Assembly (NCBI GenBank): GCA_029717555.1 | Contig: JAMDHS010000110.1 | Span: 1-63,374 of the forward strand | Direction: 5' to 3' | DNA: 63,374 nt | Source of the DNA: Peribolospora baueri | Taxonomy: Eukaryota | Shown: piece by piece, positions 2,668-39,074 of the stretch | How the letters are laid out: every line of letters starts with the position of its first letter | Numbering within the stretch: position 1 is the stretch's first letter | The notes under the pieces: generated by a model | What the model was told of the DNA's origin: nothing | Databases searched by the model: none | The model's input: the letters and a program-made list of their open reading frames with translations, nothing else | Program-made: the position numbers and the translations under genes

Positions 2668-5600
2668 TCACATGACGAAGAGGCCCTATGAAAGCGCAAC
2701 AGAAGCAAAATTCAATGTCATAGTCTCTTACTCCTCGCTTGTCGCTCCTCGACCAAGCGCCATTACCTCGGAGGCTCACCGTAGTCTGCTCCATCATTTC
2801 CCTGACATCGACCTGGCGCCTCTCGTACGCCTCCTTAAGCTTGATAAATTGGAGCAGCCGAGCTGTCTTTTCGATGTTGGAGCCCCACTTGACGCCCGAC
2901 ACGAGCTGAGAGATGATCCAGGAGACGTGTACCGGGTCTTGGATCCTGGCAAGAAGGACGAGAGGCGTGAGGGGAAACCGCAAAGCCGAAGACCGCACAG
3001 CGATAGCAGCGGATGGCGTGAGCACCTACTCTAGACCGGCGAAGAAGAGCGGCCTTGGCCAGACGCTCTGACTGGTGTCGGGCCTGGCGACACTCAAGAA
3101 CCTCGCGATGTAGAGGATGCGGTGCGCGGCCTCCTGGATCGGTCTAGGCGGCTCGGTGACAAAGCGGGGCAGCTGCACGGAGGAAGGATTAGCACCGAGC
3201 AAAGCCGGGTGGAGGTGTTGAGCGATGACGCGGTTGAAGTAGATGACCGTGGCGTTGTAGAGCGAGGCCACAAAGAGCTGGTTGTACATTTGTGGTGACA
3301 CATCGTCCGTCTCCGCAAAGCTGCGTAGTGAACTGTAAAAGCACAACGCCGTGAGCGGAAGGAAGACTCTTTCGCAAATAGTGACCAGCGTCCGACTCAC
3401 GGCACCGCCCATTGATCCAGGCTGGAGCTATCGTAGACGTTTTTCAGATCGTAGATTTCTTGCCACAGAGTTTGTGCCGTCTCTTGAATGTTGGCGATCT
3501 GGCGGAACGTGATGGCGGACCATGGTCAGACGCCGCCGCACGTTCAAGTACCTCGATCCCAGGTCAAGCGCCCCGACGTCTCACCTCCTTCGCCTTCTTG
3601 GCCTCGGCCGTCGCATGTGCCTTCCTCAGCGCGCCGTGCAACCTGGCCACGCGGCAGGTGAGGTAGTTGACGCCGAGGAAGCCGATAAAGCTGGACGTGT
3701 CGGAGAGCATCTTTTGCGGCGGCGTCGAGCCCGAGTCGGCGACCATGGTGACGAGCGCGTGGGCGTAGTCACCCGTGCCCACCGCGAACTGTCAAAGTCA
3801 AAAGATCGGTCAACGGCCAGTCATTTAATCACCCCAAGCTGGAATATGAACTCACGACAGCGGATCGAACGTCAAAGACGGCCATGATGATAGCGACGCG
3901 CTGCACGAGACTCGAAAGCTGGTACCAGCGTGCCTTTGCGCGTCGGAGGAGGAAAGCGGCGGCTCGGAGGAGGTGGAGGAGCTCGAACGGTCCTTCGTCA
4001 CGGAAGATTTCGTACTGCACAGGAAGGGGAGGCGTGAGAAGACCGGCCAATGGCTCACTCCCCTCTGATACGCCCTCCGACACCCGCTCACCTGACAAGC
4101 CATATGGAGCTGTGGGATATACCGCTCCAAGTCGACGACAGAAACGCGCTCCAGCTGGGAAATCTCGATCATCATCCGCGTCCGGCTCGTGAGAGCCTTG
4201 TAGGTCGTGCGGAGCAGGTGCGGGTCCCGACTTGGCGCACCGGTTGCGGTGACGAGACCAGGGACAGCGATATGGGGGCCGAAAATGGCATCCTCGGGGG
4301 AAGACGCGTCCGAGTTGGAGGGCGAGTCCGAGTCCTCCACGCCGTCCGCCGCCGTGATTGCAGATAGGAAGCCGGATGCGGCGGCGGCGGATGCAGACCA
4401 GTTTCGCGCGGTCGCCTCTTTCTTCCGATTGGCGATCCACCGCTCCATGTGCAGGGCTGACCAGGCAAGCGTCTCCTCGAACAGGTGCGCGTTGAAAAGC
4501 GCCTTGGAAAAGATGGAGGTGTAGAGGTTGGTCACGTTCTGGTCCTTGACCTTGGACCAAGGTGAGATGTGTTCGAGGAAATGGGCGATCAGCCCCGCGT
4601 CCTCCTCGCGCAGCTGAACGGGGGAAAGCGTCCGGGAAGCGGGAGCGGTGAGCATGGGCATATACGTCACCGGCTGTGGAGAAGTGCTCGATGCCAGGGC
4701 GAGAGAGGTCGGAGAGGCGGTCGAAGAGGGTCCGCCGGATTTACCCGAAGCGACGCCCGTGGAAGGTACGCTTTGCATGACGTCGGCGGAGGGCCCGCTT
4801 TGCAGAACGTCGTTCGCGCCGTTGGCCCCACTAGCCTTGCCAGCAAACGACAGATGCCCCCATTGACCGCCGTCGAGAGTCGTAGAGGACGTATTCGATC
4901 CCGGGACGGCGGACGAGTCGGCCGTTTGCGCAGGCGGCAACGGCTGGAGTTGCACTCTGGCATGAGGCACTGGTTGACCGAGCCATGGCGCGGGCGGCGT
5001 AGCGTTGAAGAAGGGTGCAGGATGAACGGAGGTGGGCGGAGAAAAATGGGAAGTAGCGGGAAGGGCGGCGTTGGGGGCGCCGGAGGGTACTCTGCGGAAA
5101 GGGATAGGAAGAATGGAGATGGAGTGAGACGAAGCGCAGGGACGAGAAGGAGCACGAGAACGTACGCTGTCCAAGCGAGTCCGTCAAGAAAGAGGTTATT
5201 CCAGTCGCCATTAGTGTAAGTGTCCGGTGGAGCGGGAGGTGGTATCGGATCGGAGGGATTGGGCAATGGCGGCTGAGGGGGTGGGACCTCAGCAGTGGGC
5301 AAGAAAGCGGGTGCAGGGAGTTCGGAGACGGTGGCAGAGTAGAGCGAGTCTCCATCCATGCTTGGATGAGCGGCGGGGGGGAAAGAGCAGAGGGGGTCAC
5401 CATGTACGGCCGGGCGCGAGGCGGGAGGAAAAGGGTAAAGCGGGTCTCCATGTATGGGCGGGTGGGCGTACGAGGTAGATGCTTGAGGGCCGGCGGTGCC
5501 GGCGCGAAGGACGTCGGCGTTGCGGTGCTCCTGTGGCCATCGGCAGGCAAGAGAGAGACGCTCGCAGTTACTGCAGATGAACGAATCCTTGGGGCAGAGC

Positions 5601-5866
5601 ACCTTTCGGGATCGACACGTCAAACATCCTGGGTTGTGGGCGGTGCATGAAAGGATGAATGCGTGTACGAGGCCGGATGAATGCACGGTGCGGCCGCCGC
5701 CGTTCGCAGCGTCCTCACCGTTTCGCGTCCTTTTGAACTTTTTCCTCTTCGACGGCCCGGCCTGGTTGTCGGAGGGAGGGTTGCCGGCGGCATCGTGGGT
5801 ATCGTGTGGGGCGTTGCGAGCGGGCGGCTTGCGGCTGGTTGAGGGCACGGGGGTGTCCGTGCCCAT
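2668..5866 (-). CDS. Zn(II)2Cys6 transcription factor with C-terminal fungal TF domain; multi-exon
   Basis: KRTRN|GCLTCRSRKVLC-x6-CSNCERLSLACRWP. Downstream helical exons (LIAHFLEHISPW, ETLAWSALHME, WPRPLFFAGLE). Last exon GLFVM-stop inferred after a GT..AG intron. Confidence 0.88.
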
Positions 5867-7217
5867 TCCGGTGGCCGGAGCGGGGGGAAGCAGGTATGCA
5901 AGAGGAGGAAAGAGAGGCGAGCGGAAGAGAGGGTGGTGGACGACGATGATCACGGGAGTGGGAGCAAATAACCGAGGCTCGGTGAGGATGGAGATGGAGA
6001 TGGAGATGGCGACGAAAAGGACGACGACGACGGGCTGGCGTTGGCGTCGGCTTCGGCCTCGGCGTCGGTGTTGCGTTCGCGACGGTCTTCCCTTTCCGGT
6101 GGCCACGATCTATCGGAGGAATCGGACCGCATCATTTCATCCGTCCCCCTTTCTCTCCACCACCGGCGCCCGTCTTCTCTCCCTCGCAACGCCGCGCAAC
6201 CACGCTCGCCTCTAGAAACAGGGACCTAGCGACGACGACGACGAACAGAAAGACCTCGCCAAGGACGCTTGGGACAAGAACAAACAGCGCACACGTTCGC
6301 AAACGTGCGACGGATGAAGGTGGGCTTACGGCCGCCGGCGTCGACCAAATATAACCCTATCTCGGCCAGCCTGACCGGGCGGGCACTGAAACGTCGTCGA
6401 AGCTCGCCAAGACTTCTAACTCGCCCATCCTCCTCAGCGCAATCCACTGCCAATCTCGGTGAGGATGTTGGGCGCGTTGTTCTTGAACGAGACCGATGCG
6501 GTGATTATCTCTCCCGATACTCGCTTTCGCCGTCTTTGTGGACGACCTAGTGTTCATTGACCATGCTTTCGCGAAAGAGAGGACACGAAGCGTTCCCTCT
6601 CCACCAACTCTGCGATGCCCAACCTAGAAGATTGCAACACTTCCGCGGATCTGGCATCACTCGAGATGGATCGTCGCGAACCCATCCATATTTTTCAAGC
6701 GTGTATACGTGCTGAACTAGCCAGACATTGTTTCGCTGACTCTCGTCCAATCTCGACGCCTCTGGATGTTACTAAGCCGTGAAGAGGAGGGAAGGACTTT
6801 GCCTTCTCCAGAATGCCGCGACGGCTCTGCTGTAAACATTTAGGGGGAGATCTCGTGGGCGCACGAGCGAACGCGGCAGCATATGACGCGATGGCGCACA
6901 TACATGCGGGCATCTACTGACTACCACTATATGATGGTAAGGCCAAAACGAGAACTAGGCACACACGGTCATCCACCGGAGCTGCCGCGCCGCAAGATTG
7001 GCAAGAGGTCGATGGTGGTCTTGCTCGGATGGAAATGTGTTAAATGAAATGTGCTTTCTACGGAGAATCGCTGTCAGGGATTGCTCCCTATTCAGGTCGT
7101 CGGGTGGCAAGGCAGGAGGAACAGAAGGGGTTGCACCAGGAGTCGACACCGAACCGAGACAGGAGGAGGAAAGGGAGCAAGGAAGCAGAGAGGCAGGACA
7201 AGACTCAAGGACCTGAG

Positions 7218-7632
7218 TGATGACAAAAGTATCTCCAGCTTGGGGAAAGGAGAGGTGGAGGCCCTGTCGGGCCCCCTACATATACAAGGCAGTTGTGTCA
7301 TCTCGGATCGGAGGCGGCGTTTATGACAGTACCCCGGGGCTAAGCGCGAGCTCCGCGAGCGCGACTGAGGCTGGACGGGCGCTGGGGGGCGGCCGTGTGC
7401 GAGGAGAGCGGTTGACATAGGCGTTTTGAACCGGGCTTCTGGGGGTAGGCCGTGTGGAAGTCGATAACAAGGGCATCATCATCGTCGAAGTCGCGCGCAT
7501 CCACCCAAGAGCGCTCCTCAGGTCCATAGCCGACCAATCGACGAGGTACTGGAGCTGTCGACGGCGAAGACGGGAGTCGAGGATCTTGGCTACTTCGTAT
7601 TCTTCTTGACCAGTCTCCGTTCTGATGACCTG
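7218..7632 (-). mobile_element. 3' remnant of a chromodomain-bearing Ty3/Gypsy element: frameshifted chromodomain, degenerate PPT region and LTR start
   Basis: [24 protein letters not shown]/(1-bp frameshift)/[15 protein letters not shown]...[10 protein letters not shown], then stop, GGGGTAC|TGTCATAAAC (TG start at 7328). LTR end uncertain. Confidence 0.8.
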
Positions 7633-7639
7633 CTAGAAG

Positions 7640-8397
7640 TGGCCTTGGAGGGGGTACTACTAGTGGTTACAGAGGAAGGTCCTGAGGTAGGGAGGGTACT
7701 GCTACGCAATCGCCTCTCCACTGCTTGACCATTTCTTGTACAGTCGTTGAGTCATGAGTATTAATAACATCATGTTGACTGCGCAGGAAAGCCTCCTCTT
7801 TCTGGCCGCTGAGACTCGGGAAGCGGAGTTCAAGCGGATTTGATCTATGGAGCTACGAAAGCGTTCACACAGAGTCCTGATATGGGTCATAGACATCTGG
7901 GAGCACTTGAGCCATAGCGGTGAAGGGGGCTGCCTTTTCGCGAAGGCTTTGGGCCAGCTGCTGCACTACTTTCTCCTCCTTTTGGAGACAGGTGAGGAGC
8001 TGAAGCTCCTTTTGCCTCGCCCAAATGAGTTTGTCGAGAAAAGTAGTTCGGCAAGCGTGGGCCGCTAGCTCCATATCAGAGGTTACAGAGGCGATGTCTT
8101 ATGTAGGGTCGGGCAAAGTCTGAAACTTGAAGAGGAGGCAGTTTGACTGCGTTGGCGATCGCTGGGGGATAAACCCCAGTGGCTTTCGCTGTTTCCAGCT
8201 CGGCCATGCCAGCCTGTACGCGAAAGCCCCTCAACACGTTGCTGGTGTAAGCAGCAACGTGCTCCTTGTAGGTTTCAAGGAAAGAGGGGGGTACCTCTAA
8301 CTGGGACAGCCAGGCTGTTCACCAGGTCTTCCTCCATTAGGGGATCGACAGCGAGACGCTTGTTACGGCGTTGGATGGCGGGGGTGGCGGTGGTCAT
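7640..8397 (-). pseudogene. Decayed helical/coiled-coil ORF, probable ORF1 of a downstream tandem Penelope-like unit
   Basis: ATG 8397 MTTATPAIQRRNKR, in-frame TGA at 8319-8321, continuing through frameshifts (VYPPAIANAVKLPPLQ; LDKLIWARQKELQLL; Ser/Thr-rich tail). Lies directly after the ribozyme and telomeric dimer. The ORF1 identity is inferred from position. Confidence 0.5.
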
Positions 8398-8451
8398 TGC
8401 GCGCCGGAGAGTGGGAAGGGGTGGGAGAGAGCCGGAGGTCGGCTTTTATCG

Positions 8452-8463
8452 AGGGTTAGGGTT
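8452..8463 (-). repeat. Telomeric dimer (AGGGTT)2, read as AACCCTAACCCT on the retroelement sense strand
   Basis: agggttagggtt at 8452-8463, about 75 nt downstream of the ribozyme. Confidence 0.65.
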
Positions 8464-8536
8464 TTGTCGTCAACTTGGGGCTGCCATGAAGTTGCTGCGA
8501 ACCAAAAAAACTAAGCCGCAAGAGAAGAAAGAGCAA

Positions 8537-8574
8537 GCTGCGACAGTGTTTCGCCCGAGGGCTCGTCAGGCAGC
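8537..8574 (-). ncRNA. Minimal type I hammerhead ribozyme
   Basis: Minus strand reads GCUGC CUGACGA GCCC UC GGGC GAAAC ACU GUC GCAGC: 5-bp stem I, CUGANGA core, 4-bp stem II, GAAA core, very short stem III and GUC cleavage triplet. About 60 nt after the RT stop. Confidence 0.9.
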
Positions 8575-8632
8575 AACGATCAGCTCTCTCCCTTGCGGTG
8601 AGGCGCGAAAGTTTCACCGTGGGAATACCGGG

Positions 8633-10720
8633 TCACGTCGTGATAGACGTGAGCGCCGTGTCACCTGATTGATTAGGTGACGTACCTGCGGTGAGTCGCG
8701 TGGCTAGTTCATTAGGATGAGGGTCATAATCCAACTGCACGCGTTTAACGCGATGCCCCTGGATGGATCTCTTGTTTGACGCGTTGAAGAGGTCACCGAG
8801 GCTACGTGTTTTCCTTTTACAATTGATGATCCGAGTGCCCCGAGGGACGAACCCGAGATCAACCCATTGGGAGAGGTAAGGGTCCCAGACGGGACGCAAA
8901 TCGACTGCATCCCAGATGGGGTTGTAAAAGGTTTTGAACACGAGTCGTGGTGGCGGTTTCGTAGCGTCGCTCGTCTCTCTTTCAGCCGGGTGTGCGTGTG
9001 AAAGGGCTCGCTCGCGGAGAGCGTAGTAATTGAGACTGAGGAAAACCTTCCTGAGATACCGAAGGGGATAACCCCGCGCTCGGAGTCTCTGGAAGAAGAG
9101 ATCACGTACCGATAAGTAGTCTGCCAGTTCTGAAGCGTTACGGATGTACCGCGTCAGTTCGGCCTTAATGAAGGCCGATTTGACAGCTACTGGATGGTAG
9201 GAGGACCAGGGGATGTATTGACAGGCGTTAAGGCTCTTCTTGAAGGTTCGGGTTCCGAAACCATCGTTGGAGAGGTGGGTGAAGGGGTTGGCCTCCACAA
9301 ACACTTCCACATCCAGGAATTCAAGCTTTGTGAGGGAAGCTTTAACGCTTATCTTAAGCTGTGGGTGGATACTTGCCAGAAGCGAGCGAAGAACGTCGAG
9401 GACATCATTTTCGTTCCGCTGGTTGCTTGTGAGGGCAACCATGGCGGAGATATCGTCAATGTACCTGGCATAGTACAACACGTTTGCCTGGAGAAGCAGC
9501 TCCGAGGTGAGCTGTTGCTCGTGCCACGCCATGAAGAGGTTGGCGTACGCTGGTGCGCAGCTAGGCCCCATGGCTGTTCCTCCGATTTGCTTGTAGGTAA
9601 CCCCGGAGAAAGTGAAGTAGTTGTTCCAGAGGACTTGGGTGAGCAAGGAAAGGATGAGATCCTTTGTGCCTTGATCGTACCCAGACTTGGAGATGACAGA
9701 GCGTGGTGTTGGCAACCCTTCCTGGGTGGGAATGGAGGGATACATTGCCTTAACATCGCCAGATACAAGGTAAAGCCGCAGCGTCGGCAAAATTTGCCGG
9801 GATAGGTTTGTGATCCCTCAAATTCCTTGGAATCACGGAGAATCCAGGGGTAGCCGGGCAGAAGCGGTTGCAGCTTATAGTCGATCCATGCAGATGCCTT
9901 TGACCAGAAGGTATCGAATCCAGGGACGATGGGGCGTCCGGCGATGGGATTTTTATGGATCTTGGGAATCAGATTGAACTGCGGGAGGCGTAGATCATTT
10001 CCGGTCAACCTCGGAGGAGAGTAACCACTTCCTTTCTTGGGAGGAAAGGGAAGACCGGTAAAGCTCTGTGAGGCGTCGGAGGGTAGCTAGCCAAGCCCTT
10101 GTGTTAGGGTTTGTAATGGCATAGACAGCTCGATCCCTCAGTTGCCTTTGCGCTTCGTTGAAATACCATGTCTCGGAGACAATGTTATCATTGGGGAGCA
10201 CCAGAGTGTCTCCATCTGATAGGAATTCACGAAGAGCAGTCCAAGTCTTTTTACCGAGGTTTGGGGCCGTTGGAAGACGATTTCTGGCAGCGGTATGAAT
10301 CGCTGTCATCAACGCAGAACGACCGACAGCGAGGCTGCGCTCAGAACGGTGACTTTGTTTAGGAGCGGGGGTCTGGCTGGGAATGTGAAACCTTGGGACG
10401 AAAGGTTGAACATCTGGTTTATCGCGGAAAAACCATCTCCAGCGAGCGCGTCGTTCGAAGTCCTCAATAGAGGTAGTCCATTCGGTGTCTGACATTCTAG
10501 GTTTCGGAATAAACTTCATATTGAAAGCTAGGGTCCGTTTGACTTGGAGCGACAGAGGTTTACCCGCAATGTTGTGTACCTCATTGTTTTTGACTAGGGT
10601 GTCAATAAACAAGGGGGACGAATGCCGGTATACGAACTTTGCGCGCTCTGCGGGTGTAAGAGCGAAAGGAGATGTCTGAATATGTAGCCATTTTTCTCAC
10701 ATTAAAGTGAGGGCCTACAT
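8633..10720 (-). mobile_element. Penelope-like element reverse transcriptase, no endonuclease seen (Coprina-like); frameshifted
   Basis: VHN..LS..L...KFIP, IPKIHKNPIAGRPIV, LVSGDVKAMYPSIP, KQIGGTAMGPSCAPAYANLF, YARYIDDI, LEFLDV, YIPWSSYHP..K..FIKAELTRY, RLRARGYP. Split over three or more frames; no GIY-YIG motif seen at either end. Confidence 0.9.
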
Positions 10721-10794
10721 ACCGAGTGGAGGACTTTTTGGGGTCCTGTCGTCCCTTTCCTCTCCTTCCCCCACCTCCGCCAGTTTTCTTGGTG

Positions 10795-12272
10795 CCAGAT
10801 GCAGCAGCGACGGCGCTCCCGAGTGCAGCTTCGCAAGCAGACCTCGAGCCCGTCTCATCCTGGCTGATCCTTACCCATCCTCCAGAGTCGCGCTCCACAA
10901 GCCTCTCGCCGAACCACGTCTTGCCGGAGCCGGGTAGGCCGATGAGCATGATCAATTGAGGGTCTCGATCCAGTCTTCCGACCATCTGAAATCCTTGCCT
11001 TCCGGTTCTCCTACATCTTCCTCGTCTATTTGCGACGATGTCGCTTGACTGTGCTTCTTCCAAGCGCGCTTCACGAACGTCTCCACAAACTCTTCCTGCG
11101 CTCGAGTCTCTACACTTCCCGGGCGGATCTCGCGCAGGGCGGCGATGGCCGAGTGGGCGTCCATTTGAGGTGGAGGAAGAGCGCGAGGAAAGGAGGATGG
11201 GAGGTTGAAAGGTGGCAGCTCGAAGCCGAATAGGGCGATGTAGCACGCCAAGAAGGTCCCTGCTCGGCCTTCCAGAGTGGAACCCGCGGCAGGAGAAGCG
11301 TGAGTCGATCAATAGCGTCGGGCTTTTTTTTCGAACGACTCGCCTCCTCCTTCGTCGCGAGCAAACCCTATTCAGTGTAGCGAGGATAAGAACAGAGTTT
11401 GCTCATCGCGTGGTCGAATACTTTGCGAGCCTTCTCCTCGGCCTTGTCCACCTTGCTTATCTGCTGATCATGCTTGTAAGCAGAGCCTTCTTCTTCGAGC
11501 TCCAACACCTTGTACCAGCTCAGCATTGCCAGCTTCCACTTTCCTTCCCTATTCGCCCAATCGGCCAACCTAGCCCAGCCCCTGGAATCACCGGCATGAC
11601 GAAGAGACGATAATGAGAGCAGCGTGTAATGCGTGTGTAAGGTTTTGACGGGCGAGAAAGTGCAGAAAGAGATCGTCGAGATGGAAAACAAGGGAACTCT
11701 TTGCATGAGCCGGCCGTGGATTCAAGGCTGGCTCGCGGAGAAGCCTGAGTGATGGAACAGGCGCCCTTCTCGACGTTATGCTCGTGGCACCTCGAAATGG
11801 TGATGTGGAAATCTTTGAGCGGCAGGCCGAGCTGTCGACGGAGCTTATCACCCGTCGCCCAAGCAATGACCACGAAGGAGACGTTAGGAGAGCCGGAGGA
11901 GAACGAGGATGTCGTCTTTTCCTTGCCGGAGTCGGAGGCCTTCGCTTGGCCGAGACCAAGCGGAATAATCCGGCCTAGGTCAATGGAAAAACCTTGTTTT
12001 GACTTTGACGATCCACGATCTCCTGCTCCTGCAACGGGCAACCTCTCCACCACCTGTTTGGCCTTTTCCGACAAGCTGCGCAGCTCGTCCTTGGTGCAGA
12101 ACGTGATGTGAAATTCGTCGTTGATGGCGTCGTTCCGCTTGACTGGGACGTTGTGTGGTACTAGCGGCAGGTGCTCGTTGGCGATGGAGTCGACAAAAGG
12201 CCCTGTAAGGGTTAGATAGCCGCGTGTGCGCACTAAACGGAAAGAAGAAGCGTCTGAAGGACGTGACGACAT
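10795..12272 (-). pseudogene. Truncated multi-domain RNA end-healing ('Swiss-army-knife' type) gene: 2H phosphoesterase, TPR-like segment, Cys-phosphatase remnant, P-loop kinase N-half
   Basis: Two HxT motifs (FHITF about 12105; LGLPLKDFHITI about 11800), RGWARLADW..KLAML, GRAGTFLACYIAL..AIAALREIRPGSVET..QEEFV, LIMLIGLPGSGKTWF..ISQDE. Several frameshifts, a damaged HCx5R loop, and no ligase domain found. Confidence 0.75.
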
Positions 12273-12441
12273 GATCGGATGACCCGCTATTGGTCTGAAT
12301 TGGGTTATGAAAGTGTTGGGGGCAGATGGAAGAAAGAGAAAAAGAAAATAAGAAAAGGGCCGAAGTGGTTTGTCCGTGAAGATGCTACCGAATTTGTATG
12401 CGGTGAGGAAACCAAGACGATGGAGTCTGTCACATAACAAA

Positions 12442-12452
12442 GTTTATATAGG
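12442..12452 (-). promoter_or_regulatory. TATA-like box (TATATAAA) upstream of the RNA-repair pseudogene
   Basis: cctatataaac on the minus strand about 170 bp before ATG 12272, followed by a pyrimidine-rich leader. Confidence 0.4.
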
Positions 12453-13012
12453 CGGGAGAAATCAAACTCGATGCCGAGAAATTGACAGTCGGAAACGCAA
12501 GTCAGATGAGAGACGAAAGTGAAGCGCTGGGTATGCCTCCGTCTTCGTCTTCGCGGACTGGGTGTCATCTCAAGCGAGTCGAGTCGAAAGACGGGGGAGT
12601 CGGCTCGACCCTGTAGAACGCGAAATGAAGCGGTCTCCCTGTGACCAGGACTCGTTGAGGTTCAAGAGAGATTTCTAATGGCGGTGGACCAGAATGGCGG
12701 TGCACAGAGTCAGAATCATGTCTGTCTCGGCAAGATGCAGACCGAAACTTGGGGGGTGCGGAAACGAGGGATAATGAGTCCTGTAAAGTGGGATATGACT
12801 CGAAGAGTGGAGCGGGCCGCCTCTCCGTGACCGAGGCCCGGGGTTGCTGCGGGCCGGGCCGAGCATAGAGACCAACTGTCCCTTAGAGGCAGCTCGGGCT
12901 GCTTTTGAGGACGTCTATTTGAAGCCACCCATCTCCCCCTCTCTCCTCGACATTCAACTCTCCTCCTTTCCAACTTATTTTGACCGCCCCTCAACTGATC
13001 CATATCCAAAAC

Positions 13013-13909
13013 ATGCGTGTCTTCGTTACCGGCGGAACAGGCTTCATCGGTTCTGCCATCGTTCAGGAGCTAATCAGCGCGGGCCATCAGGTGCTCGGCC
13101 TCGCTCGCTCAGATGCGGCCGAGGATTTGCTTGCCGCCGCTGGTGCTGAGGCACATCGAGGTGCTCTCGACGATCTTGACAGCCTGAGGCGTGGAGCAGC
13201 TGCATCAGATGGCGTCATCCACACCGCCTGGATTCCCGACTTCTCAGACTATGCAGGCGTCTGCAAGACAGACAGGCTCGCGATCGAGGCGCTTGGCGCT
13301 GCGCTTGCGGAATCAGGCCGCCCCTTAGTCGTCACTTCCGGCACCCTGGCGCTCACGCCGGGCCGCCTGGGGACCGAAGAAGATGCGCTAGATCCCAGCA
13401 CCGCAGCGGCCCCCCGTATACCCTCGGAAGAGGCAGCGCTTTCGATGGCGTCGCATGGCGTGCGCGTGTCAGCGGTCCGCCTCCCACCGTTGGTACATGG
13501 CGATGGCGATCACGGCTTCGTTCCGATCCTGATTCGCATCGCCCGCGAAAAGGGCGTTTCGGCGTATGTAGGTGACGGGCTTAACCGCTGGTCCGCGGTG
13601 CACCGGCTCGATGCTGCCCATCTCTTCAGGCTGGCGCTTGAGGAGGGCTCCGCGGGAGCCAAGTTTCACGCGGTCGCCGACGAGGGCGTGCGGATCCGAG
13701 ATATCGCTGAAGTAATCGGCCGACACCTGAACGTGCCGGTCGTCTCCAAATCACCCGAGGAGGCAGCCGACCATTTTGGCTGGGTCGCGCCCTTCCTCTC
13801 GACGGATAACCCTACCTCAAGCACGCGAACTCAGGAACAGCTCGGATGGCGCCCATCCCAACCTGCGCTGATTCCCGATCTCGACCGGGCGCGCTACTTC
13901 GAACCCTGA
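13013..13909 (+). CDS. NAD(P)-dependent epimerase/dehydratase-family atypical SDR, 298 aa, intronless
   Basis: MRVFVTGGTGFIGS Rossmann motif, GHQVLGLARSD, VRLPPLVHGDGDHGFV, NRWSAVHRLDAA, LGWRP. Uninterrupted ORF; ATG context ccaaaacATG. Confidence 0.92.
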   Translation: MRVFVTGGTGFIGSAIVQELISAGHQVLGLARSDAAEDLLAAAGAEAHRGALDDLDSLRRGAAASDGVIHTAWIPDFSDYAGVCKTDRLAIEALGAALAESGRPLVVTSGTLALTPGRLGTEEDALDPSTAAAPRIPSEEAALSMASHGVRVSAVRLPPLVHGDGDHGFVPILIRIAREKGVSAYVGDGLNRWSAVHRLDAAHLFRLALEEGSAGAKFHAVADEGVRIRDIAEVIGRHLNVPVVSKSPEEAADHFGWVAPFLSTDNPTSSTRTQEQLGWRPSQPALIPDLDRARYFEP

Positions 13910-38800: not shown

Positions 38801-39074
38801 AGGCGGTTGAATGCGTCGTTGGTGAAGAAATGATAGGAGTCCTCACAGCTATAAATAAATTCTTCTGCTTGGTCCTGCTTCCTTTCGCGGCCATGGGGAG
38901 GGAGGACGGTGATGGGAACTAGCTGTTGAATGATTGGGGCGGCAGTAACCACTCTCGTCCTCCCCAGCCTAAGCGCTTCGATGGCCGCGAAAGGAAGCGG
39001 GACCAAGCAGAAGAATTTATTTACAGCTGTGAGGACTCCTATCATTTCTTCACCAACGACGCATTCAACCGCCT
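38801..39074. repeat. Long inverted repeat: 94-bp arms (38801-38894 and 38981-39074), 2 mismatches, 86-bp spacer
   Basis: Arms compared base by base; they differ only at an a/g and a t/c position. Confidence 0.95.

Follow-up and report, generated by a model that had tools for sequence, protein, structure and literature searches.

A decayed SAK-family RNA-repair gene copy joined in frame to a 5'-truncated Penelope-like element in fungal DNA

On the minus strand of a 63,374-nt stretch of fungal DNA (GC ~0.58; the whole stretch analysed, hereafter the window), a truncated copy of a SAK-family ('Swiss Army Knife') RNA-repair gene reads in frame into a 5'-truncated Penelope-like element (PLE). The locus encodes no working repair enzyme and no working reverse transcriptase (RT), in agreement with the original prediction that the copy is non-functional as assembled, for both the SAK and the element parts are frameshifted and truncated. 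The same prediction had ranked a gene truncated by the element ahead of a template-switch chimera, and both ahead of a functional cargo, and the evidence presented here leaves that order in place. We consider the chances slightly better than even that a SAK paralogue was truncated and joined to the element at the DNA level through microhomology, which would make the fusion an accident without functional coupling. The features of the locus are collected in Table 1.

Table 1. Features of the SAK-PLE locus, in window positions.
Feature	Position	Strand	Basis or remarks
TATATAAA (TATA) box	12443..12450	-	171 nt upstream of ATG, within multi-copy block (summed depth 4-5x)
Decayed, truncated SAK gene copy	10746..12272	-	ATG 12272-12270 to last SAK codon, CAG 10748-10746
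2H-SAK phosphoesterase domain, open frame, both HxT motifs	11727..12236	-	Pfam E=1e-16
Helical linker ('TPR-like' segment), reachable only via frameshifts	11434..11586	-	Weak tblastn match, E=0.53
C-terminal third of PTP-SAK phosphatase domain	11048..11272	-	Pfam profile positions 99-153 of 153
Start of P-loop polynucleotide-kinase-like domain	10830..10991	-	AAA_33 positions 1-33 of 143
Junction, up to 7 bases common to SAK copies and another element copy	10746..10752	-	Contig comparison
PLE copy 1, 5'-truncated	8452..10752	-	Core ORF frameshifts near 10672, near 10040 and at 9818; stop 8633-8635
Type I hammerhead motif, complete core, helix III of 3 bp with 1-nt loop	8536..8575	-	18.7 bits
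C-strand telomere-repeat motif CCCTAACCCT at 3' end of copy 1	8452..8461	-	1 match in window, 0.10 expected
PLE copy 2, front only (N-terminal extension of element protein), cut at 7675	7675..8451	-	HMM matches
High-copy retroelement fragment, Ty3/gypsy-type: chromodomain (7321-7632) and LTR-like stretch	6868..7674	-	Pfam Chromo E=4e-4

The assignment of the upstream gene to an RNA end-healing family was borne out by Pfam profile searches, which recovered the domains of the SAK family, a family reportedly named by Burroughs and Aravind in 2016. Its 2H phosphoesterase domain, lying in ORF 11520-12443(-), scored 61.8 bits against a cut-off of 27 over profile positions 1-117 of 124, and the two HxT/S motifs of 2H-SAK proteins are present as HITF and HITI. 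Intact orthologues from Agaricomycetes (852-857 aa) carry, by Pfam, 2H-SAK (PF22547), PTP-SAK (PF22784), AAA_33 and RNA_ligase in that order. The window copy keeps the order of 2H-SAK, PTP-SAK tail and P-loop start; it differs from these fungal proteins in having no Cys loop, no kinase body and no ligase, and in being one of several copies. The Cys-phosphatase that had been proposed was accordingly right as to the last third of PTP-SAK, but the HCxxGxGR Cys region (the HCGGG stretch of orthologues) has no counterpart in the window copy, so that PTP-SAK is incomplete. Likewise, the proposed P-loop kinase was matched through the AAA_33 motif GLPGSGKT, but the kinase stops after about a quarter, and comparison with orthologues placed no RNA ligase part anywhere in the window. 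The segment described as TPR-like corresponds weakly to the linker of the orthologues, but gave no Pfam match. An upstream TATA box had been noted and was found as TATATAAA, which occurs twice in the window against 0.06 expected.

Decay of the SAK copy is extensive. Compared with orthologues by tblastn, it has no residues ~230-395 and none beyond ~530, and a deletion near 11340 removes ~165 codons from the phosphatase domain together with its catalytic Cys region. Other SAK copies, visible as contig loose ends at 11339/11341, have sequence at the site of this deletion. There are also several frameshifts, and the linker, the PTP-SAK tail and the kinase start lie in other frames than 2H-SAK. Omitting base 11602, as in other copies, merged two SAK frames into one open stretch of 108 codons, and applying three indels of other SAK copies together left the 2H-to-linker frame closed, with one gap letter missing from the contig sequence used. 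Searching the window beyond the element did not recover the missing SAK 3' half, nor does the window hold a second SAK copy, a second such element locus or element-derived sequence upstream of the SAK copy. A homologue search with the junction ORF at near-query lengths gave no match. As had been stated, no intron-like interruption was seen in the 1.5 kb of SAK sequence; such a lack is unusual among basidiomycete genes.

The retroelement block is a head-to-tail pair: copy 1, which is 5'-truncated, is followed by the hammerhead and the telomere-repeat motif, and these by the front of copy 2, which a chromodomain retroelement fragment cuts short. When 4 bases that are present behind 9818 in all listed contigs were added to the first copy, all 4 stops over 485 codons were cleared. 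The second copy was recognised with an HMM built from the N-terminal extensions of relatives, which matched 8079-8318 (E=3.2e-6) and 7868-8098 (E=1.8e-6), both behind the 3' end of copy 1; the next best of 1,451 window pieces gave 0.21. The ribozyme that had been predicted stands as a complete type I hammerhead core, but its score falls below the Rfam gathering score of 34 (E=0.044 in 221 nt). Searches of the whole window and of 6.6 kb returned no match, and the minimum-free-energy fold of the region was no better than shuffles (z=+1.0). The motif lies ~75 nt from the reverse-complement telomere repeat, an arrangement that reproduces the 3'-end feature of such elements with a hammerhead below gathering score. 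Helix III is very short, unlike the large helix III described for fungal PLE hammerheads in PMC4209133. Many other copies have 11 extra bases at 8546 (~45% of the depth in organism A and all of it in organism B, introduced below), and folding by hand suggests that these would lengthen helix III to the form described for fungal PLEs.

Relatives of the RT ORF (8633-9817) were abundant, with 9,986 found at E<=0.001. Identity to relatives is 30-45% over ~640 residues, which places the protein among PLE-type RTs, with the N-terminal conserved motifs and the thumb; the relatives with names are from Rhodotorula, Microbotryum and Puccinia. Among the best 150 of the 9,986, Pfam found RVT_1 only, in 126. 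A GIY-YIG endonuclease was absent from the ORFs of the window and, by Pfam, from all 150, as were the SAK, 2H, PTP and AAA_33 domains from these 150 relatives. When RT relatives were compared with SAK orthologues by blastp, the best E-value was 0.2, and none of five related metagenome loci held SAK-like sequence at E<=0.1. The suggestion that other PLE copies might be preceded by the same domains therefore failed among the 150 best relatives and the five loci. Three of these loci (L001, L003 and L004) show a hammerhead followed by a telomere repeat, and L004 has the identical layout of copy, hammerhead, CCCTAACCCT and next copy. Homology to relatives begins at ~10666, and 17 of 84 relatives have 250-480 further residues in front. 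This N-terminal extension is itself conserved and has no Pfam domain (relatives P0005-P0017; loci L001 and L004); a homologue search with the N-terminal ORF of the element at longer lengths gave no match.

These relatives also bear on FNVRKMATY, which had been taken for the PLE N-terminus. It is retroelement-coded, but comparison with relatives (F.V.R.A[ST][YF]P..F[FL]) shows a conserved motif in the interior of the element protein; the aligned motif sits 320-480 residues into full-length relatives, which have 300-480 additional residues ahead of it. As FNVRKMATY is internal, the fusion swaps the element's own N-terminal extension for a crippled SAK front. Judged by its features, the element is probably a Coprina-like, endonuclease-deficient PLE. 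It resembles Coprina/Athena PLEs in its PLE RT motifs without GIY-YIG, its hammerhead and reverse-complement telomere repeat, and its head-to-tail copies of which the upstream one is 5'-truncated, and its anatomy matches that given for endonuclease-minus PLEs in PMC8557442. It differs from them in location: the window has no telomere array and there are genes on both sides, so that the locus is internal and not at a chromosome end.

Contigs of four public DNA runs, from two organisms (A and B) of one study, were compared with window positions 6400-13400. From the P-loop onwards, ORF 10602-11402(-) stays open via ACEAALG and GRRGKGRQ into DPKKSSTRYVGPHFNVRKMATYSDISF, as far as a stop at 10602, and the in-frame reading from kinase to element is thereby real. 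The basic tract within it is composite, GRRGKGRQ belonging to SAK and the stretch beginning DPKK to the element. SAK copies matched the window down to 10746 and a separate element copy matched it up to 10752. In organism A, two contigs in each of two runs departed from the window exactly at 10746 and continued in frame as TVILDRVNPT, the expected kinase continuation, where orthologues read GRTILDRCNTS. Because the SAK contigs leave at 10746 and the element contig matches to 10752, the break lies at 10746-10752. None of the listed contigs bridged 10746. Another contig matched the element up to 10752 and went on into the element's own N-terminal extension, in sequence that ends at 7675; the contig comparison does not give the letters between these two sides. 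We rejected the reading of this 10752-to-7675 joint as a tandem or permuted unit, as the profile of the relatives' extensions puts 7675-8451 at the front of the element. A spliceosomal intron at ~10722-10672 was also rejected: its exon phases misfit, and the alignment of relatives passes through this stretch uninterrupted in the SAK frame.

Both parts of the fusion are repeated. In run X1, summed depth was 89-94 in the single-copy flanks, 286-590 in the SAK part and 325-716 in the element, depth being a sum over look-alike copies and not a true copy number; uncovered parts were not interpreted. On this summed scale, the SAK gene with ~480 nt upstream (10746-12750, minus strand) amounts to ~3-6 copies in organism A, the figure for organism B being 2-3, and at least two SAK-like copies of organism A continue past 10746 into authentic kinase sequence. 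The element 5' region was at <1x in organism B, and the summed depth of the chromodomain fragment reached up to ~12x in organism A and was greater still in B. Contigs of organism A matched the window's flanks, and some of its internal stretches, without a single difference. In organism B, a contig of 4,880 nt continues from 12862: beyond the single-copy flank (12862-13400) it has 3.6 kb of sequence unlike the window, and no SAK-like sequence was found at this syntenic flank. Given the raised depth and the organism B flank, the SAK copy is a member of a repeated family and not an old resident of the locus. The proposal that the PLE truncated a resident gene thus holds as to the truncation, but not as to the residence, the gene being one decayed member of a family of 3-6 copies.

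In the origin that we favour, an extra copy of a multi-copy fungal SAK gene, decayed before or after the event, would have been broken inside its kinase domain. The broken end would then have been joined at the DNA level, with microhomology of a few bases, to a Coprina-like PLE without endonuclease, at the point where that element is 5'-truncated. We infer microhomology-mediated end joining as the mechanism, and likewise the order of these events; the common orientation and the common reading frame would have arisen by chance (1 in 2 and 1 in 3, respectively). As the SAK 3' half is missing beyond the element, plain insertion is not enough, and a deletion or rearrangement is needed too. According to PMC8557442, PLEs are frequently 5'-truncated and occur in partial tandems, and PMC3846280 describes a PLE 5' junction formed by microhomology, in a Penelope copy of Adineta vaga. 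The window junction is like that one and those of 5'-truncated LINE-1 elements in its few shared bases, and differs in lacking the remaining half of the target gene. Since the element has no endonuclease, a pre-existing DNA end would also be needed, unlike in junctions of the LINE-1 type.

A less probable origin, though one with a real claim on the data, is a template-switch chimera, in which the element RT, helped by a short homology of a few bases, jumped from an internal point of the element RNA to a SAK transcript and copied it to its 5' end, leaving a co-oriented retrocopy with a SAK front and an element back. The common orientation of the two parts mildly favours this origin, and the up to 7 bases in common at the junction, the absence of introns from the SAK sequence, the missing SAK 3' half and the lack of the block at the syntenic place in organism B all accord with it; PMC3846280 discusses both template jumps and chimeric ORFs of PLEs. 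However, the multi-copy block that was copied extends over the TATATAAA box and a further ~300 nt upstream, which an mRNA from that promoter would not contain, and a DNA copy is favoured over an mRNA copy because these sequences lie within it. The lack of introns does not discriminate, because other SAK copies appear equally intron-free, with no intron-sized insertion among the rows listed, and PMC3846280 reports PLEs able to copy genes with introns kept.

An assembly artefact, in which two repeats were wrongly joined and the junction is not real, appears improbable. Both sides are indeed multi-copy, no listed contig bridges the joint, and several window-specific indels are missing from the contigs. 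Against this, the ~7 common bases are too few for a graph mis-join and the exact matches to organism A contigs extend to some internal stretches. Moreover, since contigs drop rare variants, a variant missing from them proves nothing.

A little more doubtful still is the idea that the fusion is not unique, the window copy being a dead member of a young sub-lineage of endonuclease-less PLEs in which a SAK 2H/phosphatase/P-loop front replaced the N-terminal extension; in a milder and equally doubtful version, the element RT would have spread an intron-free, multi-copy SAK family in these yeasts. If this were so, intact members of the fusion sub-lineage would tidy the ends made by the element hammerhead.

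Hammerhead cleavage leaves 2',3'-cyclic phosphate and 5'-OH ends, the substrates of RNA-repair domains. Least probable of all, and very unlikely in our view, is that a PLE lineage took up the 2H/phosphatase/kinase front of SAK as a cargo to heal its own hammerhead-cut ends: the match between those ends and such domains, the in-frame fusion and an element variant at ~2-copy depth that skips 10645-10725, with its upstream flank outside the contig data, would suit it, but the domains are absent from the 150 best relatives and five loci, the SAK part is frameshifted and has lost the ligase, three quarters of its kinase and the Cys region of the phosphatase, the element part is itself frameshifted with its conserved extension replaced, SAK copies with the normal kinase continuation exist, and organism B has SAK copies yet <1x of the element 5' region. 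Terminons are giant Athena-based elements with co-oriented extra ORFs, and the window is like them in having an extra coding segment co-oriented upstream of an endonuclease-less PLE RT. The segment is decayed, however, and nothing ties it to the element; the earlier comparison with an Athena-like Terminon carrying cargo gives way to an endonuclease-less, telomere-type PLE pair with no extra Pfam domain in its 150 best relatives.

With an accidental DNA-level joining as the preferred origin, the locus would be an ordinary retroelement-associated pseudogene. Its value lies in offering a base-resolved example of an endonuclease-less, telomere-type PLE that reached an internal site beside a broken gene. 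Of interest to specialists are the conserved 250-480 aa extension in a Pucciniomycotina-centred PLE group and the SAK RNA-repair gene family, which in two related fungi has several copies and apparently no introns.

The single-copy neighbours, judged by eye from their translations, are an NAD-dependent epimerase-like ORF at 12923-13909 (plus strand) and a Zn2Cys6-type regulator-like ORF at 4667-6109 (minus strand). Elsewhere in the window, an inverted repeat of 94 nt (98% complementary, 86 nt between the arms) occupies 38801-39074.
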